A DNA stretch of 64,000 nucleotides from Escherichia coli (GTDB lineage: Bacteria > Pseudomonadota > Gammaproteobacteria > Enterobacterales > Enterobacteriaceae), in the NCBI RefSeq assembly GCF_965641715.1, contig NZ_OZ282453.1, one strand, 5' to 3'. Position numbers and translations under genes: made by a program. A model generated the notes under the pieces. That model was not told where the DNA came from and did not search any database. It saw nothing but the letters and a program-made list of their open reading frames with translations. Position 1 is the stretch's first letter; each line of letters opens with the position of its first letter. Shown piece by piece: positions 1 through 49,742 of this stretch.

Positions 1-42
1 AAGTGATTGGGCAGAGCCGAAACGTTTACAATCCGATAGGAG

Positions 43-1677
43 TTGGTTTTGTCGCTACATGATAAATTATTAATGCATAACTTCGCATTAGCCAATAAAA
101 AAAGCCCTGACTTCATATCTGAACTTCCTCAAATTGAACCTAAACCATACAGCAATGGACATAAAATTAAATGGATAAACCACACACTTACTAGCACTGA
201 AGTTACTCCGCCTGATAACCTGATTAAAATATGCATATTGATTGAGTCAGGGGAAATTGCTATAACATCAGTAAGTGATATTGCCAATTTACTTGGAGTT
301 CCTGCTGGCCAATTACTTTATATACTATATCGTAAAAAAGATAATTATCGTACTTTTGAAATAGAAAAGAAGAATGGTAAAAAAAGAGTCATTAATGCTC
401 CTTGTGGCGGTCTATCGATACTCCAAACGAGACTAAAGCCCGTTCTTGAATATTTCTACAGGCCAAAGAAATCTGCTCATGGTTTTATAAAAGGAAAGAG
501 CATCATTACTAATGCTGGGATGCATATTAAAAAAAAATTTGTCGTAAACATTGACCTAGAAAACTATTTCGAATCAATAAGTTTTGCTAGGGTTTATGGA
601 ATATTTAAAAGTAAACCTTTTAATTTTTCTCATCCAGCAGCTACTGTTTTAGCTCAGTTATGTACTCACAATGGAAAATTACCTCAAGGTGCGTGTACAT
701 CGCCAATATTAGCAAATATTGCATCAGCTTCTCTAGACAAACAGCTCACCCAATTTGCAGGAAGAAAAAAAATATCTTATTCTAGGTATGCTGACGACAT
801 AACTTTTTCTTTCAATCAGAGAAATATTGATATAATCAAAAAAAACGACGACGGAAGTTATAGTCTTAGTGAAACTATAGACAATATTATTTCAAAAAAT
901 GGCTTTAAAATAAATTATGATAAATTTAGAGTTCAAACCAGAAATACAAGACAAAGTGTTACTGGCTTAGTGGTTAATGATAAAGTTAACATTAACAGAA
1001 GATATATAAGAATTACACGTTCAATGATTCATAGATGGACAGATGATAAGCTAAAGTATGCACTTCTCTTTGCTACAGAAAAAGGATATCAGGCAAAGGA
1101 TAATAACCACGCAATTCAAATTTTCCGAAATCATATTTATGGAAGACTTAGCTTTATAAAAATGGTTAGAGGGAAAGACTATCCAGGATATTTAAAACTG
1201 ATGTCATACATGAGTCATAACGATCCATTAAAAACCCAAGAAGGATTGCGAGCAATGAAAGAAACAGAAAACTTTGATGTTTTTATATGCCATGCAAGCG
1301 AAGACAAAAAAGACATTGCAATTCCAATATATGACGAGTTAACTAAACTTAAAATTTCAGCCTTCATAGATCATGTTGAGATAAAATGGGGCGACTCCTT
1401 AATTGAGAAAATAAATGCAGCACTAGTTAAATCAAAATATGTCATCGCTATTTTATCTGCTAATTCAGTCAATAAGGAATGGCCTCAAAAAGAATTAAGA
1501 GCAGTTTTAGCCAGCGAAATATCGAGTGGCGACGTAAAACTTTTGACCCTATTAAAAAAAGAAGACAAGGAGGTCGTAAACCTATCATTACCTTTACTTA
1601 GTGATAAGTTTTATATGGTCTATGATAATAATCCTGAAGTAGTCGCCAACAATATTAAATCACTCTTACAACGATAA
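43..1677 (+). CDS. Reverse transcriptase fused to C-terminal TIR domain (retron/defence-type RT); start ambiguous (TTG 43, TTG 49 after AGGAG, or ATG 73)
   Basis: RT motifs in translation: FVVNIDLENYF, LPQGACTSPILANI, SRYADDITFS (YADD); C-terminal FDVFICHASEDKKDIAIPIYDEL...ILSANSVNKEWPQKEL resembles TIR; in-frame stop at 37-39 limits the 5' extension. Confidence 0.85.
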   Translation: MVLSLHDKLLMHNFALANKKSPDFISELPQIEPKPYSNGHKIKWINHTLTSTEVTPPDNLIKICILIESGEIAITSVSDIANLLGVPAGQLLYILYRKKDNYRTFEIEKKNGKKRVINAPCGGLSILQTRLKPVLEYFYRPKKSAHGFIKGKSIITNAGMHIKKKFVVNIDLENYFESISFARVYGIFKSKPFNFSHPAATVLAQLCTHNGKLPQGACTSPILANIASASLDKQLTQFAGRKKISYSRYADDITFSFNQRNIDIIKKNDDGSYSLSETIDNIISKNGFKINYDKFRVQTRNTRQSVTGLVVNDKVNINRRYIRITRSMIHRWTDDKLKYALLFATEKGYQAKDNNHAIQIFRNHIYGRLSFIKMVRGKDYPGYLKLMSYMSHNDPLKTQEGLRAMKETENFDVFICHASEDKKDIAIPIYDELTKLKISAFIDHVEIKWGDSLIEKINAALVKSKYVIAILSANSVNKEWPQKELRAVLASEISSGDVKLLTLLKKEDKEVVNLSLPLLSDKFYMVYDNNPEVVANNIKSLLQR

Positions 1678-2121
1678 TTCTCTCACAAAAGCAAATGTGC
1701 AGATTGATGCGTATTAAGTATTAACCTGCACATACAAAAAATTAATAAAATAATATATTTTTCATAACCTGCAGGTAACAATAATATGTGTCGTAACGAA
1801 TAGTTGGATAACCTCTATACCCTATTAACCAACCAATTAACTCTATGTAATCTCGCAGCCTCAAAACCCGACTATTGTTCTCTTAACAGTCAGTTCACGT
1901 TCCATTTCGGCCTGAGCCCCATAACATGGAAGAAAAAACGCCCCCAGTCAGTCCAGCTTTCAGACAATCAGTGTGTCACCTGCCGATAATATTCTGAGTA
2001 GTTTTTTCAGCCCAGGCCTTTCGGACTTTGTACCACTGATTTTATCTTCAAAATCAGCGCGCATTCTTCGTAGTCCAGCAAACTCTTGTATATGACGTTA
2101 TTATGGCTACAGCAGTAACGA

Positions 2122-2208
2122 TTATTCCATAACAGGTACTGTAGGCCACTCAATATCCGGTGCTACTGATGTATCAACACGGTTCAGCAACACCCGATAC
2201 TTTTTCCA
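2122..2208 (-). pseudogene. tfa: Tail fibre assembly protein (tfa) C-terminal remnant, about 28 codons
   Basis: Minus-strand translation [28 protein letters not shown] matches the recalled lambda Tfa C-terminus; frame is closed by a stop immediately upstream. Confidence 0.6.
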
Positions 2209-2326
2209 GGTTGTTACCAGACTCACATTCGTTCATTAATATGTCCTGTGATTTGCGTGCGGTGAGGTAGCCTTTTCCCAACCTCACCATCATCCGGCAA
2301 TTTGTATTTATCACAAACGGCCTGTA

Positions 2327-4729
2327 TCAGTTGTCTGTTGCACCAACCATACCCGCAAATTTGAGCCATTGTCCTGATGGACTTCTGTTACCGCGGTAGT
2401 GATAAACAAGGATTGCATTTGTTACTCCACCATAGTCAGCTTTATGTGATGTGGTTAAGCGAATTGTATAATCACCATCGGGCAGGTTAAAAACTTCAAT
2501 TACAGTCCCTGCTAATTCAACCGCTCCAAACCCCGTTATATTGTTGATGCTGCCCGCATTGAATCCCATCATATCGCCAAAACCAATCCAGTACTTTTTG
2601 CTGAACGCACCATTTGACCTCAGGTGGTTAATAAATGTGGACATACTCATGCCCATTTCGCCGCCAGTTATGGCTGATGTACGTACCGAAATACTTGGCA
2701 GAGCACTACTCTTCACATAAGAGCTCAGAAGATTTATGACTTCTGTTTTCGTATAAGCATTAACGTTAGCCGCAGTCAACGTTATATCCGCAGTGCCATC
2801 AAACTTCACACCAGCAATTTCCCTTGCAGTCTGCAATTTCGTGGCACTGGCTGCGTTACCCGTTGTATCCTGATTGCCTGCCGCATTCACCCCCGGGATC
2901 AAATCTTTTACTGTATAAATCTGCGCCCAGTCCGACTCAAACCCATACTCATCCCGTGAGGAACGATAAAACAGCCCACCATTTTTATAATTGGCCCTGA
3001 TTTGCAACGTCCGGCAACTTCCACCCCCTGTATAGAAGTTTGCAACAATATAGCTGCTGCCTGTCCGGGTGACATTGTATGCACCAGATTTGGCATTCCA
3101 CGGAACGCCTCCCTCTGACTCTGCGTGCACACCGGACGATCCAAGAGCAAAAGCAGAGACATCTGCAGCGGACAGCCTGATGTCTGATTTCAATGCCTTA
3201 CCATTCACCTTACGACCAGATGGAACCCGGTCATTTGCATTATCATTCACCGCTTTCACCGCCATTGGTGTTGCCGCCAGCGATTCACTGTCACTGTCCG
3301 TGGCACTGCTGAGCTGTACCACCCCCTTTCTCGTCGTGCTCGCATCCTCTAGCGCCACGGCAGATGCAATATCCTCTGCCCGTTTTGCTGCTGTCTCGGC
3401 ACGCGTTGCTGCAGATTCCGACGTACTTTTGCTCTGAGCTGCCGCTGTCGCACTACCAGCTGCCTCTGTCGCCTTCGTGGATGCCGTCGTGGCACTGACC
3501 TTCGCCTCTGACGCCTGTCTTACCGCCTCATCTTTTGAAGCAGACGCCGATGATGCTGATGACGCCGCCGAACTGGCGGACGATGCGGCTGCCGTTTCTG
3601 AGGCTCCTGCGCGGGTTTCCGACGCTTTCGCATTCGTCTCAGATGTCTTCGCTGCGGAAGCAGAACTCGCAGCTGCAGTGGCCTGTTCAGTGGCTTCGCC
3701 AGCCTTCGTTGTGGCTGTTGAAGCGGACGATGCAGCGCTTTCTGCCGATTTTCCGGCGGCAGCGGCACTGGCTACAGCCTCCCCTGCCTTCACTGATGCC
3801 TCACGGGCCGATGATGCAGCCGCGGTTTCTGAGCCTGCCGCAGCTGAGGCACTCTGTCCCGCTGCCGTTTCAGAAGACCTGGCGTTCGTCTCGGACGTTT
3901 TTGCCGCTTTCGCGGAATTGCCTGCCGCTGTTGCCGAGGAAGCTGCGCTACTGGCGCTCGAGGATGCGTTCGTTTCTGATGATTTTGCCGCCTCTTTTGA
4001 AGCCGCCGCATCCCGGGCTGAGGTGGCAGCTTCTGACGCTTTCGTAGTCGCGGTGGATGCAGAAGTGGCTGCTGATTGTTGTGACGCTGCCGCATTCGTT
4101 TCTGACGTTTTCGCGGCACTGGCACTGGTAGCTGCCGCGCTTTTTGAGGACTCTGCAGCGGCAGCACTTTTTGATGCTTCAGTGGCCTTTGTTGATGCCG
4201 TTCCTGCGCTGGAAGTCGCTGACTGAGCCGACGACGCGGCCTGTCCGGCTGACGTGCTGGCTGCGCGTGCTGAGCCTGCAGCATCAGTCGCATGGGTTGC
4301 CGCCTCACGGGCTGATGTGCTGGCATCACTGGCTGACTTCTTCGCGGCTGCCGTGTTCTGTGCCACCACGGACGCGTTACGCGCCACCTCTTCCACCATC
4401 AGCTCAAAACGGCGCAGTGCCTCCGGACGGGCATCATCCTCCGTCATGGCACCGAGAAAATCATTCAGCGTACCGGGTCGGGAATCTTCATACACTGTGA
4501 TGGTCCCGGCATGTGACGGCGGGAATCCTTCCACCAACAGAATAACGCTGTACTGACCGTACTCAACGTCCATGCTGTAACGCCCGGCTTCATCCGGATT
4601 TTCTGAGGCCAGCGTGTTCACCACCACCGTGGTACTGTTACGTTTTGCTTTCAGCTGGATTGTGCAGTTCTGTACCGGTTTTCCTGTGCCGTCTTTCAGT
4701 ACACCTGAAATCTTTACTGCCATATTCAC
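2327..4729 (-). CDS. stf: Side tail fibre protein Stf
   Basis: N-terminus MAVKISGVLKDGTGKPVQNCTIQLKA... lambda Stf-like; long Ala/Ser/Thr-rich repetitive shaft; follows lom and J. Confidence 0.9.
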   Translation of the reverse strand: MNMAVKISGVLKDGTGKPVQNCTIQLKAKRNSTTVVVNTLASENPDEAGRYSMDVEYGQYSVILLVEGFPPSHAGTITVYEDSRPGTLNDFLGAMTEDDARPEALRRFELMVEEVARNASVVAQNTAAAKKSASDASTSAREAATHATDAAGSARAASTSAGQAASSAQSATSSAGTASTKATEASKSAAAAESSKSAAATSASAAKTSETNAAASQQSAATSASTATTKASEAATSARDAAASKEAAKSSETNASSSASSAASSATAAGNSAKAAKTSETNARSSETAAGQSASAAAGSETAAASSAREASVKAGEAVASAAAAGKSAESAASSASTATTKAGEATEQATAAASSASAAKTSETNAKASETRAGASETAAASSASSAASSASSASASKDEAVRQASEAKVSATTASTKATEAAGSATAAAQSKSTSESAATRAETAAKRAEDIASAVALEDASTTRKGVVQLSSATDSDSESLAATPMAVKAVNDNANDRVPSGRKVNGKALKSDIRLSAADVSAFALGSSGVHAESEGGVPWNAKSGAYNVTRTGSSYIVANFYTGGGSCRTLQIRANYKNGGLFYRSSRDEYGFESDWAQIYTVKDLIPGVNAAGNQDTTGNAASATKLQTAREIAGVKFDGTADITLTAANVNAYTKTEVINLLSSYVKSSALPSISVRTSAITGGEMGMSMSTFINHLRSNGAFSKKYWIGFGDMMGFNAGSINNITGFGAVELAGTVIEVFNLPDGDYTIRLTTSHKADYGGVTNAILVYHYRGNRSPSGQWLKFAGMVGATDN

Positions 4730-27617: not shown

Positions 27618-27863
27618 ACCTTTTTTCTCCTGTAAATAAAAAAGAGCCACCAGCGGCCCACCAAAAAACACCCCGTCAAAGACACCTGCACCCACAGATG
27701 CCTTTTGTGTGGTGTTATTCAGATTTGCGCAGTAAAGGCCAGAGAACAACCATCACCATCGCTACCAGCACGCCATCAGCCAGAACCGACATCAGCCGTC
27801 CGGCAAAATCTACTGCCACTACCAGAAACAGCAGGATGGCAGCCAGCACAAGACGTGCACTTT

Positions 27864-29358: not shown

Positions 29359-29435
29359 TGGTCCGCCACCGGGTGCTCGAACCTCGCACAATCAACTTAG
29401 AAGGCTGATGCTCTATCCAGATGAGCTGGTGGCGG
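29359..29435 (-). tRNA. tRNA-Arg (anticodon UCU)-like, phage-encoded; T-stem imperfect
   Basis: Acceptor stem CCGCCAC/GTGGCGG, D-arm GCTC-ATCTGGATA-GAGC, anticodon loop CTTCTAA, 3' ACCA; two mismatches in the T-stem. Confidence 0.55.
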
Positions 29436-29437
29436 AA

Positions 29438-29513
29438 TGGTGGCCCTTGCTGGATTTGAACCAGCGACCTGGCGATTATGAGTCGCTCGCTCTAACCACT
29501 GAGCTAAAGGGCC
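29438..29513 (-). tRNA. ileZ: tRNA-Ile2 (anticodon CAU, ileX/ileZ-like), phage-encoded
   Basis: Minus strand GGCCCTTTAGCTCAGTGGTTAGAGCGAGCGACTCATAATCGCCAGGTCGCTGGTTCAAATCCAGCAAGGGCCACCA is near-identical to recalled E. coli tRNA-Ile2. Confidence 0.85.
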
Positions 29514-38729: not shown

Positions 38730-38800
38730 ATATGTACCTCCGATATACATATTACATGATTGAAATGAACCTTCAAGATACTTGTACCTTATCGGTACAA
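38730..38800. promoter_or_regulatory. Immunity switch operator/promoter region with two palindromes (ATATGTA-N9-TACATAT; TTGTACC-N5-GGTACAA)
   Basis: Inverted repeats read directly between divergent cro-like and cI starts. Confidence 0.6.
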
Positions 38801-39530: not shown

Positions 39531-39558
39531 TTGACAATGTACCCATGGGATACATAAT
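39531..39558 (+). promoter_or_regulatory. PL-like sigma70 promoter (TTGACA-16-CATAAT) with overlapping operator-like palindrome ATGTACCCATGGGATACAT
   Basis: Consensus -35 and near-consensus -10 read directly; the palindrome shares the TGTAC half-site with the cI/cro operators. Confidence 0.55.
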
Positions 39559-41539: not shown

Positions 41540-42076
41540 ATGTCATTTATCAAAACTTTTTCTGGGAAGCATTTTTATTATGACAGGATAAATAAAGACG
41601 ACATCGATATTAACGATATCGCGGTTTCCCTTTCAAATATCTGTCGCTTTGCCGGTCATCTTTCGCACTTCTACAGCGTCGCCCAACATGCGGTTCTTTG
41701 CAGCCAGCTGGTGCCGCAGGAATTTGCTTTTGAAGCGTTAATGCATGATGCAACAGAAGCGTATTGCCAGGACATTCCCGCACCACTGAAACGCCTTCTT
41801 CCTGACTATAAACGGATGGAAGAAAAAATAGACGCCGTAATCCGTGAGAAATACGGGTTACCCCCGGTTATGAGTACACCCGTGAAATATGCCGATCTCA
41901 TCATGCTGGCAACCGAACGCCGCGATCTCGGGCTTGATGATGGCTCTTTCTGGCCTGTACTGGAAGGCATCCCGGCAACAGAGATGTTCAACGTGATTCC
42001 ACTGGCACCGGGCCATGCCTACGGGATGTTTATGGAACGTTTTAACGATTTATCGGAGTTACGCAAATGCGCATGA
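41540..42076 (+). CDS. HD-domain 5'-deoxynucleotidase (YfdR-like)
   Basis: HD motif region (HFYSVAQHAV...MHDATEAY); 178 aa from MSFIKTF. Confidence 0.7.
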   Translation: MSFIKTFSGKHFYYDRINKDDIDINDIAVSLSNICRFAGHLSHFYSVAQHAVLCSQLVPQEFAFEALMHDATEAYCQDIPAPLKRLLPDYKRMEEKIDAVIREKYGLPPVMSTPVKYADLIMLATERRDLGLDDGSFWPVLEGIPATEMFNVIPLAPGHAYGMFMERFNDLSELRKCA

Positions 42077-42429
42077 ATGTTTTCGAAATGGAAGGGTTTC
42101 TTCGCGGGAAATGTGTACCGCGAGATCTGAAAGTGAACGAAACAAATGCTGAGTACCTGGTACGTAAATTCGACGCGCTTGAAGCTAAATGTGCGGCACT
42201 GGAAAACAAAATAATACCAGTGTCAACTGAACTGCCACCAGCAAATGAAAGTGTTCTGTTATTTGATGCTAATGGAGAAGGCTGGCTGATTGGCTGGCGT
42301 TCTCTCTGGTACACCTGGGGACAAAAAGAAACCGGAGAATGGCAGTGGACATTTCAGGTCGGGGACCTTGAAAACTTCAATATCACTCACTGGGCAGTAA
42401 TGCCCAAAGCGCCGGAGGCTGGAGCATAA
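42067..42429 (+). CDS. YfdS-like protein
   Basis: 120-aa ORF coupled to flanking genes; KplE1-like synteny. Confidence 0.5.
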   Translation: MRMNVFEMEGFLRGKCVPRDLKVNETNAEYLVRKFDALEAKCAALENKIIPVSTELPPANESVLLFDANGEGWLIGWRSLWYTWGQKETGEWQWTFQVGDLENFNITHWAVMPKAPEAGA

Positions 42430-43049
42430 TGACCACATTTACCAATAAAGAACTGATTAAAGAAATCAAAGAACGAATCAGCAGCCTAGAGGTTCGAGAC
42501 GATATTGAGCGCCGTGCTTATGAAATTGCTCTGGCATCGCTGGAAGAGGAGCCGGTGGCATGGCTGCATTCAGACAATGGCTTAGGTATTCCGGCAATAA
42601 CCAGGAGCAAAAACATTGCTGACAGTTGGTTATCAATGGGCTGGTATGTTCAGCCGCTATATATAGCCAAGCCAGTACTGGTGGTGCCAGATGCTCGTCC
42701 GTCTTTAAATAATGGCATAGTCGGTTTTGATGAAGGCTGGAACGCCTGCCGCGCCACCATGCTTCATGGTGCCAAACCTGTAAGCCAGACTTACAAGTTG
42801 AACAAGCTGCCGGGCAACTCTCCGGTAACTCAGGATGGTTGGATAAGCTGTAGTGAGCGAATGCCGAACGATAAACAGTATGTTTGGTGTTGGGGTAAGT
42901 CTTACGGCTGGACTGAGTGCGATACCTTCGAAGGGTATTACGATTGGTCGAGAAACAAATGGTGGGCAGTTACTGACGATGGGGAAGAACCGGCATCGAA
43001 AGTAACCCACTGGATGCCGCTACCGGAGCCACCGCAGGAGGTGAAGTAA
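42429..43049 (+). CDS. DUF551-domain protein (YfdT-like)
   Basis: 206 aa with Trp-rich C-terminus (WCWGKSYGWTECDTFEGYYDW). Confidence 0.5.
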   Translation: MTTFTNKELIKEIKERISSLEVRDDIERRAYEIALASLEEEPVAWLHSDNGLGIPAITRSKNIADSWLSMGWYVQPLYIAKPVLVVPDARPSLNNGIVGFDEGWNACRATMLHGAKPVSQTYKLNKLPGNSPVTQDGWISCSERMPNDKQYVWCWGKSYGWTECDTFEGYYDWSRNKWWAVTDDGEEPASKVTHWMPLPEPPQEVK

Positions 43050-43243
43050 TGAACAACTTAATGACAACTAAACAAGTCGCCGACTTCTGTGGCGTTTCAG
43101 TATCGACCGTTCTTCGCTGGAACAGCGTAAACAGGAGAACTGGCCAGAAATACAGGCCTGACTTTCCAGATCCTGATATTAAATCCTGCCCAAATAAATG
43201 GGCATCACGCAAGATATACAGGTTTGCTGGAGTTATTGAGTGA
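43049..43243 (+). CDS. AlpA/Xis-like small DNA-binding protein (putative excisionase)
   Basis: 64 aa, MTTKQVADFCGVSVSTVLRW HTH; last gene of the early-left operon. Confidence 0.6.
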   Translation: MNNLMTTKQVADFCGVSVSTVLRWNSVNRRTGQKYRPDFPDPDIKSCPNKWASRKIYRFAGVIE

Positions 43244-43277
43244 TGGGTATTAGCTCATATCAGAACTAATACCCATC
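43242..43277 (+). terminator. 12-bp perfect inverted repeat hairpin after xis (GATGGGTATTAG-N12-CTAATACCCATC)
   Basis: Read directly; no T-run follows, so it may be a terminator or a protein-binding site. Confidence 0.4.
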
Positions 43278-43445
43278 AATGACACAGAGCCAACTACCCA
43301 CCCTGTGTCAGGGGCTAACTTTTAACACCATAATTCACCGCTAGATAAAAACTGTATTGCATTGCACGAGCGGCGCAGCATTATCAGTTAGAGTGTCTTT
43401 ACCTTGTTAGGCTCCACAGTTCGCACTGTCCAACGCCTGTCACTT

Positions 43446-46400
43446 TCACACGCTGCGCCTTCGAGAATATTCATTTAATCGCTGATAACGAACATCTTGC
43501 TCCAGTTGTGGAGCAGCTTGAACAATTTGAAGCAAGCATTGCCCCAACTCTCGAGGCCCCCAGTGTTGTTCGGCAATCACGGCATTCAGCAGGGATAGAG
43601 CGTCCGCAGGATATCGGCTGCAAATATCTGATTCTAGCAAAAGGCGAACGTCGTAGCTAAGGTGTTCGAGCGGTTGCAGCCAGTCCTGCACCACTGCCAA
43701 AGCCGCCGGAAATTCACCTCGGGCAGCAATCACCATACGAGTCAACGATTCGGATATGCGTGGGGTGGCCAAGTTGCGGGACTTTGGCCAAACCTGTTGC
43801 CAAAATGGCTGGACACGATTTTTCCAATACTCCTCGCGCTGATCGCCCGCACCTTCAAGTGCCTGGTATAACGCCTGCGCGGCTACCTCCAGACCTTCTT
43901 GTGGAAGAGCACTAATTGCCGTTCGGAACTCCTCCACGGTATATCCCTCGGTAGGGCCCAGAGCTGCATAAGTCAGGAAAATAGCGAATTGCTGCCGGTG
44001 CTCGCCAAGATCAGAATAGTGATTGGCGCTCTCCAAAAAATCTGACTTGAAAGCTATCAGCAACGGTTCATACAGGCGTGGCGACCAGAGGAAGCCTTCC
44101 CACACAGCTTTTGCTTCGACGGGATTACTCCAAGCAAACAAGGGCAATAGATACTGTTCGGTCCAAGGTCGATCTACGCGAAAAAATGCGATCAGCCGCG
44201 ACCCCAGCAACACCCGACCATGGCGGAATAGCTCTATCTGTACATTACACAATTTGGTGAAAAGTGTTTTCAATTCAACAGGAAGCAAATCATTGTCATT
44301 CGGGTTCTGTTTGAACCATAGGGTGATCAGTGATTGCGTGACATGCCCAATGGGATGATTGATCGCCGTAGAAACAGGATCATAGGTCTCAATTCCGTTT
44401 CGAATGGTGCTAGACTCTGGGCTTGTTTCTATCATCAGAACCCGACGACAAAGGGCCAGTAGAATCTCCTCGTGGCAGAGGATGGTCTTCGAAGCCTCCT
44501 CCATCCACCAAGTGACAGCGTGGGAAATCTCCTGAAGTACTGCGTCAGGCATGTCAAGCACCAACGGTGCGGCGTACCGCCACGAACGCAAAATCATCCC
44601 TGGTTCAGCCCAAGTCTGCAGAGCTTCACGCCACCGACCAACAGGCCACACATCATCTTGTGATAGTTTACGTAACGCATACAGACTGTGAAAAAAGCGC
44701 GTACGGCAAACATCACTCCAAGTGTCCTCATAGAAAGGCAGTCTTTCTGGCATAGGCTTTGCGAGCCATTGCACTAATTCCTGCCACTTACGGGGCGCAA
44801 TGTCGACATCTATACTCTCCTCGAAGCCTGGATCACCGGTTCCGCTCATCCAGTGAGAGAATTCATCACGCTCGTTGGTTGCCAGTTGCCATTTTGGGTA
44901 TGCTGTGGATATTTCCGTCAAACGTGTAGCCGCAGACTCTCCCAAAACAAGGCCCGCTCCCCTGAGCTTCTCTAGACACAACCAGACGGAATGAGCCACC
45001 AAATAATGCCACCTGTCTGCTTCCAAATTATCCTCGTACATCTCGCGCGGAGGCCCTGCCAAGATAGCAGTTTCCAGACGCTCTTGTGCAATTCCTGTCA
45101 GATGTCGTCCCTGCAAAACAAACAGTCTGAATACCTCTCGCCGAGTATCCGTGGCCCACAACCACCATGAACCGTCCTCTAACAACCAATTAACCCACCG
45201 CTCAGGTGGTATGCAGTTGTCTTGGCTTGCGGCAAACAGTGCCAGACGTTTGAAGGTGGGATATGGCAACTCAAACCAATTCTGAGCAATGCGCGAGGCC
45301 TGATCGCTGTCTTTGGCTCGAACGGCTAACCATGAATCCCGAAGTAATTCAATCAGGCTCACCCAATCGCGGAACCCCCGGTTCTGCCAGTGCGGAGTGA
45401 TGGACGGCAAATCCCAATGCGAGCGGTCGTGACGATCGTCGGACTCTCCCAACTCCCGCAACAAGTCCAGTGCATCACGCAACAACTGCTGAAAATCTTC
45501 CAACAGGTATGGCAAGGACGATTTCCATGACTCGTCAGCAAGGTCGAACAGGGTTGAACGTACGTAATCAGCAGTCAGCACCAGCTCCCAATCCACCAAT
45601 TGCTTGATTCGCAAGGGTTCATCAGTGCTGCTCGAATCGTCTTCACTATAGCGAAACGGCCGCCTCAACATAACCTTGGGAGAAAGCAACTCGCGTAACT
45701 CCAAGCGCAATGTAGTCGTCAAGCCTTCATTCTTTAAGCGGTTTTGCCAACGATACAAATCCAGGTTCTGCAATGGCGATTTCACACGACCACTAAGCAG
45801 AAGCCGCCATAAAGTAGACATAGGTGGACCAGGAATAGCCAGGGGGGAATGCAAGAGAATTTCATCTAACTCAGAAGTCTTACGCTCCCGCATCAGTGCT
45901 GCTAAGCGATCTAGTTCGCTCTCAATCAGAAACATCCAACGGTCGTGTATTTGTCCGCCGCGTTCAGCAATCCATATGATCAACCTAGGGTCGCCCAGAT
46001 AACGAACTAGCCAACGGGCTATATGGGACATTACGTCATCCCATTTGCTAGCACTGACACATCCAGAAACCAGCGACATCTGCGGGGCCAGCTCATAGGG
46101 CGCAGGACGCTGAACCAGACTGAATCGGAGTTTCGGGTCAATTTCGACATGCGGAGATACACAAAAGCGTGGCAGATCGCTGTATTTAAATCGTTCGTCC
46201 GAGAAAGCTTTCAATAACCAATCCAGCGGCGGTGCAGGATTGAGTTCCGCAAAGCGTTTTGCTGGTAAACCTGATTTATCTGACAAGGCCCACAACATCC
46301 GACCAACGAAATCGTCCTGACGAGTGCTGTCCTGCGGGCGGGCCAGAGCATGTTTGACGACTATAGCCTCTTTGCCCTGTATACCATCTCGATAAGTATC

Positions 46401-47273
46401 TGCCCAAGCGTGCAACGTTTGATGCAGCACTGAATGATCAGTGGAGCTCGCCGGTACGGTGTAAAGGATAGGAGTGACCCCTTTGGCCTCCCACTCGATG
46501 GCTTTCCGGTGCTCCTGCCCCGGCTCACACTCCCCCAGTGCCCATACTTGTGGTGTGACTTCACCGAGCCTCCGATCTGCTGCAAGCGCATCCATCATGT
46601 AGCGCAGTACCGGGTCGTTGATGCTGTAGCCAACGAAGCAGACCACATAGTTACGAAATAACTCACTCACAAAGCGAGCTGCCCAACGCTCAGTGAGATA
46701 AGCCAAGCCAAAGTCACCGCTGGTAACAACCAGACGATTCAGGGCAGTATCATCCGCCTTTTCCGGTAACAGCCCATGCAGGTATACAAGTCCATCCCAG
46801 CGGCTGTTTTTTGGAATTGGCAGCATCGGCGCTACATAGGCCTGAAAAGCCTGGCCTGTACGTTTAGCTGCCACATGAAAGAGACGGTCAAAGTTGGTAG
46901 TGACCAATCGAAGGGCACCCTCGCGGCTACGGGCTAAACGTAACAGCGCCGCCTGAGTATCAATAGCGCCCCTACGACGGAGCTTTGGCTTAAGGGCTTT
47001 TTCCAACGCGCGTCGGACGGCTATACGCTGCCCTGGTAAGCGCCGTTCCAGCAAATCTAATGTGCCGTCAAATTGCCCACGCTCGAAAACCTCACGCTCA
47101 ATTTCTGAAAGTGTTGTTCCGTTCCTCTGGTAAATTAGTTCTACCAACCCTTTGAAACCAGGTAAACCAGCAGGGTAGGAAATGCCTGCTCCACAGAAGA
47201 ACACAACGCGCCCTTCCTCGTGCGCCTGCAAAAGCTCATCAGGAATATCAGGGCCGTTGGTAATGAATTGCAT
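43446..47273 (-). CDS. SIR2-domain protein, 1275 aa (defence-associated sirtuin-like; N-terminal SIR2 NADase domain + large C-terminal region)
   Basis: N-terminal VVFFCGAGISYPAGLPGF (GAGIS), LVTTNFDRLF and LVYLHGLL motifs; no P-loop seen; AGGAGG RBS. Confidence 0.8.
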   Translation of the reverse strand: MQFITNGPDIPDELLQAHEEGRVVFFCGAGISYPAGLPGFKGLVELIYQRNGTTLSEIEREVFERGQFDGTLDLLERRLPGQRIAVRRALEKALKPKLRRRGAIDTQAALLRLARSREGALRLVTTNFDRLFHVAAKRTGQAFQAYVAPMLPIPKNSRWDGLVYLHGLLPEKADDTALNRLVVTSGDFGLAYLTERWAARFVSELFRNYVVCFVGYSINDPVLRYMMDALAADRRLGEVTPQVWALGECEPGQEHRKAIEWEAKGVTPILYTVPASSTDHSVLHQTLHAWADTYRDGIQGKEAIVVKHALARPQDSTRQDDFVGRMLWALSDKSGLPAKRFAELNPAPPLDWLLKAFSDERFKYSDLPRFCVSPHVEIDPKLRFSLVQRPAPYELAPQMSLVSGCVSASKWDDVMSHIARWLVRYLGDPRLIIWIAERGGQIHDRWMFLIESELDRLAALMRERKTSELDEILLHSPLAIPGPPMSTLWRLLLSGRVKSPLQNLDLYRWQNRLKNEGLTTTLRLELRELLSPKVMLRRPFRYSEDDSSSTDEPLRIKQLVDWELVLTADYVRSTLFDLADESWKSSLPYLLEDFQQLLRDALDLLRELGESDDRHDRSHWDLPSITPHWQNRGFRDWVSLIELLRDSWLAVRAKDSDQASRIAQNWFELPYPTFKRLALFAASQDNCIPPERWVNWLLEDGSWWLWATDTRREVFRLFVLQGRHLTGIAQERLETAILAGPPREMYEDNLEADRWHYLVAHSVWLCLEKLRGAGLVLGESAATRLTEISTAYPKWQLATNERDEFSHWMSGTGDPGFEESIDVDIAPRKWQELVQWLAKPMPERLPFYEDTWSDVCRTRFFHSLYALRKLSQDDVWPVGRWREALQTWAEPGMILRSWRYAAPLVLDMPDAVLQEISHAVTWWMEEASKTILCHEEILLALCRRVLMIETSPESSTIRNGIETYDPVSTAINHPIGHVTQSLITLWFKQNPNDNDLLPVELKTLFTKLCNVQIELFRHGRVLLGSRLIAFFRVDRPWTEQYLLPLFAWSNPVEAKAVWEGFLWSPRLYEPLLIAFKSDFLESANHYSDLGEHRQQFAIFLTYAALGPTEGYTVEEFRTAISALPQEGLEVAAQALYQALEGAGDQREEYWKNRVQPFWQQVWPKSRNLATPRISESLTRMVIAARGEFPAALAVVQDWLQPLEHLSYDVRLLLESDICSRYPADALSLLNAVIAEQHWGPRELGQCLLQIVQAAPQLEQDVRYQRLNEYSRRRSV

Positions 47274-47455
47274 TCCTTTTCCTCCTATCCAATGTGCACG
47301 TTCATTCGAGTAAATGAAGGCAAGGGGTTACATCTTATTATACCGACCGTGCAAATCCGGCTTCCTAGCAAGCTACTTTACTTGCCAACTCATAATGTCC
47401 GAACTCCGAACAAAGCGGACTGCTAGATTTGATTGCGTTCTAGCTACGCAAAATA

Positions 47456-48679
47456 TCATTTCGAGCCTGAACGAGTACAAGTAACAATCGATTCAACTCT
47501 CTCCCACCATGCCTGGTAGGCTTTACGCTGTTCTTCTAGATAATCACTCTTGTCATAAACTTGCCATACACCTGGCAGTTTATGACCGAGCATTATTTCA
47601 GCAATATGAGGCGCAGTAAGATCAGAAAAGTTTGTTCGTGCTGTTCGTCTCAAATCATGAAGAGACCAATGAGGAAATTGATACCCCAAACGCCGCCATG
47701 CGTACTGCATTAAATTGTAAGGCAGCGACTGCAATGATGTCCGACCAACTGGTTCCCTGCTTCCTTCCTTAGTAAAAAGCATATCGGAACCGTTGTTCAT
47801 AGAGATAACGTATTTTATAAGCTCTTCAACCGGTTCAATAATGGGCCGCTTTAGCGGTTTGCCTGTTATATCCCCTGTCTTATGTCGTTCTGGTGGTACA
47901 GTCCATATTTTATTAATGAAATCAAAATCGTCCACCTTGGCAGTAATTAGCTCTGAACTACGGCAACCAAAATGCAGCAATAGTTTAATGAAGGCCCGGT
48001 ATTTAGGAACCATTCGAGAACCATCGATCGCAGCATAAAGGATTTTAATTTCATCATGTGTCAGAAACCGTTTCTTCTGACCTTTACGGATATCCATATC
48101 TTTACCCGTGATATCCGACAGCGGGCGAGTTTCAATGAGCTTTCTCTTATACGCCCAGACATGGGCCTGCTTTGCGTTAATTAGCAATCGGTCTGCTATT
48201 GCTGGAGTCTTAGTGCTAAGAGGCTCCAGGACTTCTAACCAATCATGCAATGTAGCTGCATCGTGAGGGATATTCCCGATTTTAGAGAACAGGTGCAGCT
48301 CAAACGAGCGGAGTATCTGTTCAGAACCTTTTTTATTTTTTACACAATATGCTTCATACCAAGCACGGATCACAGATTCTACCGTCATGGCTTCAGTAGC
48401 TTTACGTTTTTCTGCCAGCTTGACCAATCGTGGATTGCGGTTTGACTCGAGTTCACCACGAAGACGGATAACTTCTTCTCTGGCCTCTTTTAGTCCAGTT
48501 GCCGGGTAAGTTCCGATATCAAGACGCTCACCTTTCCCCGCCCACTGATAACGATATTGGAACACTACGCGACCTTTCGGTGATACTCTAACAGACAGAC
48601 CATCACGATCGGATTTAACCAAAACCTTATCACGTTCCTTTCCAACGACTGAACGCAACCACGCATCAGACAGCGCCAT
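47456..48679 (-). CDS. int: Tyrosine recombinase / phage integrase (P4-type)
   Basis: 407 aa; C-terminal catalytic region with HDLRRT and LGHKL...Y motifs; adjacent to host yjjG. Confidence 0.9.
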   Translation of the reverse strand: MALSDAWLRSVVGKERDKVLVKSDRDGLSVRVSPKGRVVFQYRYQWAGKGERLDIGTYPATGLKEAREEVIRLRGELESNRNPRLVKLAEKRKATEAMTVESVIRAWYEAYCVKNKKGSEQILRSFELHLFSKIGNIPHDAATLHDWLEVLEPLSTKTPAIADRLLINAKQAHVWAYKRKLIETRPLSDITGKDMDIRKGQKKRFLTHDEIKILYAAIDGSRMVPKYRAFIKLLLHFGCRSSELITAKVDDFDFINKIWTVPPERHKTGDITGKPLKRPIIEPVEELIKYVISMNNGSDMLFTKEGSREPVGRTSLQSLPYNLMQYAWRRLGYQFPHWSLHDLRRTARTNFSDLTAPHIAEIMLGHKLPGVWQVYDKSDYLEEQRKAYQAWWERVESIVTCTRSGSK

Positions 48680-48687
48680 TACTCACC

Positions 48688-48745
48688 TTGTACAAATAAC
48701 AAAAAACCTCTGCTGTTTTGTACATTATGTACAAGCACATGTACA
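48688..48745. promoter_or_regulatory. Four TGTACA palindromic hexamers upstream of int (possible operator or arm-type sites)
   Basis: TGTACA at 48689, 48719, 48728 and 48740 in the AT-rich int promoter region. Confidence 0.35.
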
Positions 48746-49064
48746 GATTTTTGATGAAAGTAACCTGATCAATTTAAAGTTACATGAAAGAATTTTCAAT
48801 CAAAGAAATCACATAACATCATGTTATTAAATGAGTTATATAATTATTACTCAATTAATTGAAAGGATTTTGAAAGAGTAAAAGAGCTTTTATTTGGGCT
48901 TAATTATTGGGGTGAGAAATAATGGCAAAAGTGCGGCGCTTCGCCACCTCTTGCAAATAAGGAGACAACGTCATAATTCTTTCTTCTTGAGTAAGCGGCA
49001 TCGCGCCGCGCTTGTTGAAAACGAAAAATTGCGGCTATTTTACCCATCAACGGGGGGGAGGCAA

Positions 49065-49742
49065 TCAGTGTTTACACAGGAGCTGCTCCAGTTCGTGCAA
49101 CGAAGAAACGGTCCAGGTGGGCGCGATGCCTTCTGGTTGCTCGCGATTGTGCGCATTCAGCCAGCAGGTCGCAAGCCCGGCGTTGATGCCACCGAGAATA
49201 TCGGACTCGGCAGTGTCGCCAACCATCAGCACGCGTGAACGGTCAGGATTGCCCGCCTGTTCCAGCGCATAATCGAAAATTTTCTTATTCGGTTTGGCAA
49301 CGCCAACTTCTTCGGAAATCACCAGCAAATCGAAGTAATCACGCAGGCCCGTCCGTTCCAGACGCACTTGCTGCAAGGCACTAAAACCGTTGGTGATGAT
49401 GCCGATTTTGGCGTTGCCACGAATGGCGTTAAGCAGAGAAACCGCGCCCGGCAGCGGCGTGCAGATTTCCGCCATCGCATTAATAAAGGCTTCGTTGAGT
49501 TTACCCGGCTCGACGTTCAGCCGTTCGGCCCAGCTCTCAAACCGCCCGTGCTGAAGCTGTAATGAAGTGATCGCGCCGTTTTGATAATCCACCCACAGTG
49601 GCTTGTTAACGGCCTGATAGTCCTGAAAATCTTCAGCGGTAAAGGTGACGCTGTAATCAAGAAACATCCGCTGCAGGCCGGTGAATGAGTCAAAGGTAAA
49701 CAGCGTTTCATCGGCATCAAAGAAAATCCAGTCCCACTTCAT
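49065..49742 (-). CDS. yjjG: Pyrimidine 5'-nucleotidase YjjG (HAD family)
   Basis: 225 aa starting [15 protein letters not shown]. Confidence 0.95.

Follow-up and report, generated by a model that had tools for sequence, protein, structure and literature searches.

The four TGTACA hexamers that lie directly upstream of the integrase gene (int) in this Escherichia coli prophage are most likely arm ("accessory") sites of the prophage integrase, as judged from comparison with related elements. On the whole we consider it probable that these hexamers serve as Int arm-type sites and that the prophage was integrated in the 5' end of prfC by means of a 14-bp core. An original prediction, made for the same window (the whole stretch of 64,000 nucleotides analysed here), had left the choice between CI-controlled sites and arm-type integrase sites. 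The arm-type half of that proposal is supported by the comparative evidence, whereas the CI half fails on the geometry of the sites and on their dissociation from the immunity region.

Organization of the prophage

At the right of the prophage, the window contained the host genes yjjG, rimI, holD and rsmC and three tRNA-Leu genes. Left of the junction was a lambdoid prophage, in which the tail, head, lysis and replication genes were on the minus strand, cro and cI were located at about 38.5-39.5 kb, and a plus-strand early operon followed with xis as its last gene (Table 1). Besides its family assignment, the product of xis had a match to HTH_17 that was under the Pfam cutoff. The int gene adjoins attL (48902-48924) and reads away from it, convergent with xis and the early operon.

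The dsr1 gene is cargo that is placed between xis and int and is outside the recombination module. A different cargo, consisting of a hypothetical protein and a STAS-like protein, occupied the dsr1 slot in the genome of EC416, and the interval on which xis and int converge looks like a place where accessory or defence genes are exchanged. At the opposite end of the prophage, near-identical genomes have an ORF of 544 aa (43-1677, plus strand) with the annotation of an anti-phage reverse transcriptase with a TIR domain; this ORF was fragmented in EC416. With dsr1 near int and the reverse transcriptase at the other end, the prophage thus has defence genes at both of its ends. It also carries three tRNA genes (Arg-tct, Arg-tct and Met-cat; 27767-27858 and 29359-29513).

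Table 1. Positions in the window of the recombination module, the putative arm sites and the neighbouring features.
Feature	Position	Strand	Description
17-bp dyads, TGTACC-N5-GGTACA type	38733-38749, 38783-38799, 39538-39554		cro-cI spacer and likely PL
xis	43049-43243	+	64-aa excisionase; phrog_1553, E = 7.7e-36; closes the leftward early operon
dsr1 (defence-associated sirtuin)	43446-47273	-	PGAP annotation in genomes 100% identical over the stretch
int	47456-48679	-	407-aa tyrosine integrase
TGTACA site 1	48689-48694	.	P-arm, closest to int; 10-15 nt from ATG
TGTACA site 2	48719-48724	.	overlaps site 3 as TTGTACAT/ATGTACAA; inverted repeat I5
TGTACA sites 3 and 4	48728-48733, 48740-48745	.	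pair within 48728..48745
AT-rich spacer, arm sites to core	48746..48901	.	20-nt direct repeat; weak minus-strand promoter-like site 48799-48771
prfC 5' remnant	48900..48974	-	22 host codons, then phage-derived NN and stop (translation, K-12 comparison)
attL core region	48902..48924	.	phage-side core-type half-site AATTATT 48902-48908; identity block 48910-48923
Promoter-like site TTGCCT-16-TAAAAT	49037..49064	-	yjjG-prfC intergenic; consensus scan

Junctions and the rebuilt prfC

With the int-yjjG stretch as a query, we searched 5,426 complete E. coli genomes for the junction. The whole stretch was present in 699 of them, and the remaining genomes matched from query position 611 onward, which is position 48910 of the window; identity in the K-12 alignment likewise ran from 48910 rightwards. 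Because unoccupied genomes match only from this point, the junction falls between int and the yjjG stop (49065), as had been predicted. The comparison with an unoccupied yjjG-prfC region, which the original prediction had proposed as a check, gave the start of host homology at 48910. The att core, which that prediction had been unable to name, is GGGTGAGAAATAAT. The insertion had been supposed to lie between yjjG and prfC, and this was not correct, since the crossover is inside prfC, past the codons for ...AIISHP.

The second junction was expected outside the window and was found there. In EC416 and 1916D18, the two near-identical genomes in which attR was read, the attR core is 816-829 bp left of position 1. 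EC416 matched positions 1-3000 of the window at 99.9%, and 1916D18 was 100% identical over 42000-49000, with an indel of about 2.2 kb elsewhere in the prophage. In both genomes, attR consists of host DNA ending in ...GGCGTCC, then GGGTGAGAAATAAT and then phage DNA; the attR arm of EC416 (NZ_AP027404.1) is at about 4770950-4771080. A three-way alignment showed that only the 14-bp GGGTGAGAAATAAT at 48910-48923, corresponding to prfC codons 17-22, is common to attL, attB and attR, and it is within these 14 bp that the alignment places strand exchange. The identical 14 bp, given on the other strand as ATTATTTCTCACCC, are annotated as an insertion duplication in GenBank LC727891, and a contiguous attP was present as predicted in the free phage genomes cdtI and Ayreon.

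The core in attP is flanked by a 7-bp inverted repeat, AATTATT-N9-AATAATT, with AATAATT as the right half-site. This repeat is unrelated to TGTACA, and its two halves are a plausible candidate pair of core-type sites. The attP of Ayreon (L004, 2955-2975) has G for T after the core, with which the identity to attB grows to 20 bp (GGGTGAGAAATAATGGCAAA); this G looks like a host-derived base acquired via an integration-excision cycle.

By these alignments, the prophage sits in the 5' end of prfC, and the host promoter and the first 22 codons are stranded upstream of int. The remnant, of 24 codons beside yjjG, is co-oriented with int at a distance of 221 nt upstream of it, and PGAP calls it a partial CDS in related genomes. 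At attR, a phage-encoded 5' end is joined in frame to prfC, and the gene is annotated as intact, with 528 aa, in EC416 and 1916D18, intactness being that of the annotated reading frame. The use of prfC as a Stx-phage site has been reported, together with an altered N-terminus of RF3 and the removal of its own RBS and promoter upon insertion (PMC2323221, PMC10132054). One survey lists prfC as disrupted through phage integration (PMC3603311); given the rebuilt reading frame, that listing is incomplete.

Putative arm sites on both sides of the core

The four hexamers were present within 60 bp upstream of int, where the original prediction had placed them, and they were clustered beyond chance. 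They are packed in 57 bp, 10-66 nt 5' of the int start codon, and site 1 is directly 5' of the int Shine-Dalgarno sequence AAGGTGAG. Twelve copies of TGTACA occurred in the whole 64-kb window, for a chance expectation of 11.2. No 60 bp held more than two copies in 600 simulated 64-kb sequences from a first-order Markov model, for which either the AT-rich surroundings or the complete window had served as the training set, and a Poisson bound for the cluster in the whole window was about 3e-5. Sites 3 and 4 form the pair TGTACAagcacaTGTACA with a start-to-start spacing of 12 bp, a module that is conserved across the int family. Because TGTACA is palindromic, the orientation of the sites cannot be assigned with confidence, and a palindrome would suit a dimeric regulator as well.

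A heterobivalent integrase requires arm sites on both arms, distinct from the core. The far arm was read in elements with a contiguous attP and in genomes of the E. coli collection. On this arm (the prfC/dinI side), attR and the contiguous attP both had four more copies of TGTACA, at distances of 68, 81, 110 and 178 bp from the core, and pairs with a period of 12-13 bp occurred there too. Both arms of attP therefore carry a repeated motif, which is distinct from the core-type AATTATT/AATAATT. The integrase itself had matches to PF13356 (Arm-DNA-bind_3, 58 bits), PF22022 and PF00589, and its first 80-94 residues aligned to the solved arm-binding domains PDB 3JTZ/3RMP and 3JU0. According to the classification of PMC8138268, it is a member of the SXT cluster within the IntSXT subgroup.

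We suggest that the N-terminal Arm-DNA-bind_3 domain of Int would read TGTACA and that its core-binding and catalytic domains would act at the core. With four sites on the int side and another four on the prfC/dinI side, Int would be able to connect the arms to the core in an intasome as in lambda, and Xis and probably IHF would direct excision. Xis, together with what is probably a host bending protein, would bind the AT-rich spacer of 156 bp. The direct repeat in this spacer (48780-48799 and 48855-48874) has copies that are 80% identical and 75 bp apart, and at the corresponding position related loci had repeats of GACA or TCA with a phasing of 10-11 bp. The repeat may represent candidate sites for Xis and IHF or another bending protein. 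The IHF consensus WATCAANNNNTTR was not found in attP, and an Rfam scan of 48400-49300 returned only a chance miRNA match (E = 0.94).

Conservation in related integrases

A scan of one genome per species yielded a family set of 80 loci with integrases 40-98% identical, and 67 non-redundant loci from gamma-, beta- and alphaproteobacteria made up the enrichment set. Far from being absent in related integrase regions, the motif occurred at least once upstream of int in 60 of the 67 loci. It was 92-fold enriched between -150 and -1 of int (135 copies in 10,050 bp, compared to 61 in 417,711 bp), and the commonest recurrent 6-mers in an unbiased count were ATGTAC and TGTACA. The relatives had a fixed layout, consisting of a 12-bp pair at -90 to -50 and a single copy at -30 to -20 before the Shine-Dalgarno sequence, and this layout was conserved although the surrounding sequence diverged.

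The layout was also kept where the word was swapped, as in a clade of about 45% identity with TGTCCA/TGGACA. Variant words were found as well in L053, an alphaproteobacterial prfC insertion (GGTGTAAA), and in L080 (GTACCA). Compared to 68 TGTACA-type integrases, the TGTCCA clade had Q41F, R52K, D54T and S29W at invariant positions of the N-domain, and these differences fit a changed arm specificity. The covariation of N-domain and motif is, however, confounded with phylogeny, because it consists of one clade switch with six sequences.

A contiguous attP with the motif on both arms was found in Morganella pMM1680-3 (TGTACA type) and in Salmonella phage KK-2013. Enterobacter p16773_4 (TGTCCA type) also had its motif on both arms, and all five copies in 3.2 kb were within attP. 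Both pMM1680-3 and p16773_4 are "plasmid" records that look like circular phage genomes, and their module order is alike, dinI - attP - int and then a convergent xis.

A prfC fragment ended 196-235 bp upstream of int in 25 of 78 related loci; elements inserted in prfC were present in Pseudomonas, Shewanella and betaproteobacteria (L020-L031). The 53 loci with no such fragment (in Xenorhabdus, Photorhabdus, Acinetobacter and others) mostly kept the TGTACA layout, a minority having variant motifs. Across these loci, arm specificity seems to be more conserved than target specificity in the integrase family. A scan of viral contigs gave only integrases that were 97-100% identical, mostly on contigs ending at int, and added no diversity; the Moraxella phage records (41% identity) end at the int start and are uninformative for the upstream motif.

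The motif was also found in R997 (KY433363), which has been identified as an SXT/R391 element (PMC5561048). Its Int was 38% identical to the present Int over 405 aa (E = 2e-88), compared to 55% in the N-domain. The attP of R997 contained three GTGTACAAA pairs with a period of 12-13 bp on both sides of the prfC core, one immediately before the prfC start that the ICE carries and two across the core, and these arms were also found in the integrated ICE of P. mirabilis H63. In R997, int is separated from attP by xis, yet the pairs flank the core; the motif is thus tied to attP and not to the int promoter as such. Both the prophage and R997 have a small HTH excisionase of related type (phrog_1553). 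Upstream of the ICE-borne prfC start, R997 (L174/L173) had 89.7% identity, in one blastn match, to the region upstream of prfC in P. mirabilis H63 (L175, 4630-4858), and this suggests that the promoter region of the ICE replacement prfC was captured from a host.

Alternative explanations for the hexamers

The hexamers might be operators at which the prophage CI silences int in the lysogen. The window contains three 17-bp dyads (Table 1) that are probable CI operators of an SfV-type immunity region, and the original prediction was right that the hexamers resemble their half-sites, as TGTAC is common to both; in addition, sites 3 and 4 are arranged almost as a dyad. This int pair, TGTACA-N6-TGTACA, nevertheless spans 18 bp instead of 17 bp, with A/T at the inner bases where the operators have C/G. 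The Stx1a phage LC727891 has int and the four hexamers alike, but its immunity region is non-homologous and its nearest CI-like protein is 32% identical. SfV, SfIV and 2H10 have the immunity region in common, but they are absent among the phage records with this int. Moreover, the motif is beside int or in attP in ICEs and other elements of Pseudomonas, Acinetobacter and beta- and alphaproteobacteria, which cannot all have this CI. The CI reading, which we now regard as highly improbable, therefore failed on the dyad geometry and on the fact that the hexamers travel with int instead of with the immunity region.

The hexamers might also be sites for the excisionase (RDF) or for another element-encoded accessory protein, and not for Int. 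Tandem sites about one helical turn apart are typical of RDF sites, such as those of TorI in KplE1, and the phrog_1553 excisionase shared with R997 could co-vary with the motif. RDF sites normally occupy a single arm, where they separate the core from the Int arm sites, but TGTACA is on both arms and up to about 220 bp from the core. The expected RDF position is occupied by other repeats, namely the 20-nt direct repeat here and the phased GACA/TCA in relatives, and with TGTACA as the RDF site, the arm-binding domain of Int would be left with no repeated motif to read. This makes an RDF role unlikely. The chance that the hexamers are elements of the int promoter or leader, or host-factor sites, with no relation to recombination is also quite small. 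The position of the motif with respect to the int start codon is strongly conserved (-90 to -50 and -30 to -20), and TGTACA matches the -35 hexamer TTGACA at four of six bases. Against this, xis lies between int and the attP pairs in R997 and H63, which have no connection to Ps003, the promoter of int, and in the prophage the far-arm copies near dinI/prfC do not precede int. The motif switches in subclades favour an element-encoded reader over RNA polymerase or a universal host factor.

Expression of int

The early operon and int converge, so that transcription of the operon cannot serve int; the gene must depend either on a promoter of its own or on read-through that starts at the host prfC promoter. 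For the latter, the promoter-like site at 49037-49064 is a candidate. In the lysogen, this site points through the prfC remnant toward int, with the arm sites in its path, and a consensus scan found no terminator-like sites between it and int, so read-through from the host prfC promoter is possible. Promoter and terminator scans of attL, attR and attP gave weak matches in numbers no higher than in shuffles, and both Pint and the promoter of the rebuilt prfC remained unplaced by these scans.

If the hexamers are Int arm-type sites, they may have a second role. They cover -10 to -66 with respect to the int ATG, a region in which promoter matches were weak and no commoner than in shuffles. As the sites occupy the last 66 nt before the start codon, bound Int probably also represses int; Int bound there would lower int expression, and by analogy with intS of KplE1 we infer that negative autoregulation of int is likely. 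In the circular phage, the promoter serving the phage-borne prfC start would read across the core toward int.

In EC416, dinI is beside attR (L003, 9090-9150), about 0.6 kb left of window position 1, and before it are a promoter-like site with TTGACA and two CTGT-N8-ACAG motifs that resemble LexA boxes. In a back-to-back arrangement, these motifs adjoin the DNA from which the phage-borne prfC start must be expressed, and prfC expression in lysogens might be influenced by the SOS response.

Implications

We tentatively extend the arm-site reading to the whole family, as a possibility that we hold with clearly less confidence than the reading for the present prophage. In this proposal, a TGTACA-centred arm-site code would be read by a conserved N-domain, with Q41, R52 and D54 invariant, in phages, islands and ICEs including SXT/R391; the family with this code would span alpha-, beta- and gammaproteobacteria, and the core specificity would vary, with prfC or other sites as targets. 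If this is true, the prfC prophages, present in 699 of the 5,426 E. coli genomes, and incoming SXT/R391 elements would have both arm sites and core in common. The integrases of the prophages and of SXT/R391 could then act on each other's att sites, and tandem arrays, cross-excision or exclusion could result. Possible cross-talk of SXT/R391 ICEs with prfC prophages is a question to which the analysis leads.

The analysis also revises the picture of a site that E. coli prophages commonly use, in that prfC is rebuilt with a phage-encoded start and necessarily with phage-supplied expression signals. As a further part of the tentative proposal, integration would swap promoters: the promoter of the phage-borne "prfC" would serve int as long as the phage is circular and prfC once a lysogen has formed, in which the promoter of the host prfC would then be directed into int. 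For prfC-targeting integrases in general, the hexamer is a candidate arm-site motif, and since it also flanks the core of an SXT/R391 element, it could help to define minimal attP substrates in this clinically important family.

Comparison with known systems

The attachment site in prfC was already known, and the recombination module is essentially that of cdtI, Ayreon and the Stx1a/Stx2c phages; arm-type sites are an expected feature of such an integrase and involve no new principle. The int genes of cdtI (NC_009514), Ayreon (MF807953) and the Stx1a/Stx2c phages at prfC (LC727876-LC727902) were 95-99.8% identical to the present one at the DNA level, and these phages likewise have the four hexamers, the 14-bp core and a phage-borne prfC 5' end. 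They differ in cargo, which is dsr1 and the TIR reverse transcriptase in the present prophage and cdt or stx in the cdtI and Stx phages. The searchable published descriptions of cdtI, Ayreon and the prfC Stx phages mention neither TGTACA repeats nor arm sites. The TGTACA arm motif, its conservation in the family and its presence in SXT/R391 were undescribed in the searchable literature, the original cdtI and SXT attP reports being outside this search, and a full-text search with GTGTACAAA returned nothing relevant.

The Int of the cdtI phage and IntSXT have been grouped in one prfC-targeting "SXT cluster" (PMC8138268), and the SXT/R391 elements resemble the present prophage in several respects. 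Both have a replacement prfC 5' end, an Int with DUF4102/Arm-DNA-bind_3, convergent xis and int, and motif pairs on both arms. However, the SXT/R391 elements are conjugative, whereas the present element is a phage. Their attP lies beyond xis, int is expressed from the SetCD-dependent promoter Ps003 (PMC4344509), and their arm sites are clear of the int promoter.

For the expression of int, the closest parallel is KplE1 (CPS-53). Its attL overlaps PintS, and repression of PintS by IntS and TorI has been shown experimentally (PMC2951348). As here, int is at the end of the prophage and is not co-transcribed with the RDF gene. The arm-type sites in attL of KplE1 overlap the int promoter region, and the putative arm sites here have a matching geometry before int, in a region where promoter-like matches were weak. 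KplE1 differs in that its integrase is of another lineage, its conserved arm motif is TAAA and its target is a tRNA gene. Unlike in KplE1, the candidate host prfC promoter reads toward int in the present lysogen.

The attP of lambda, with the arm sites P1, P2 and P'1-3, core-type sites, IHF and Xis, follows the heterobivalent logic proposed here: the motif of the arms is unlike that of the core and occurs on each arm, and strand exchange takes place in a short block of identity. However, the family of the N-domain and the motif are different, and attP is 240 bp in lambda compared to about 400 bp here. In lambda, int is transcribed together with xis from PL/PI, whereas int in the present prophage is convergent with xis.
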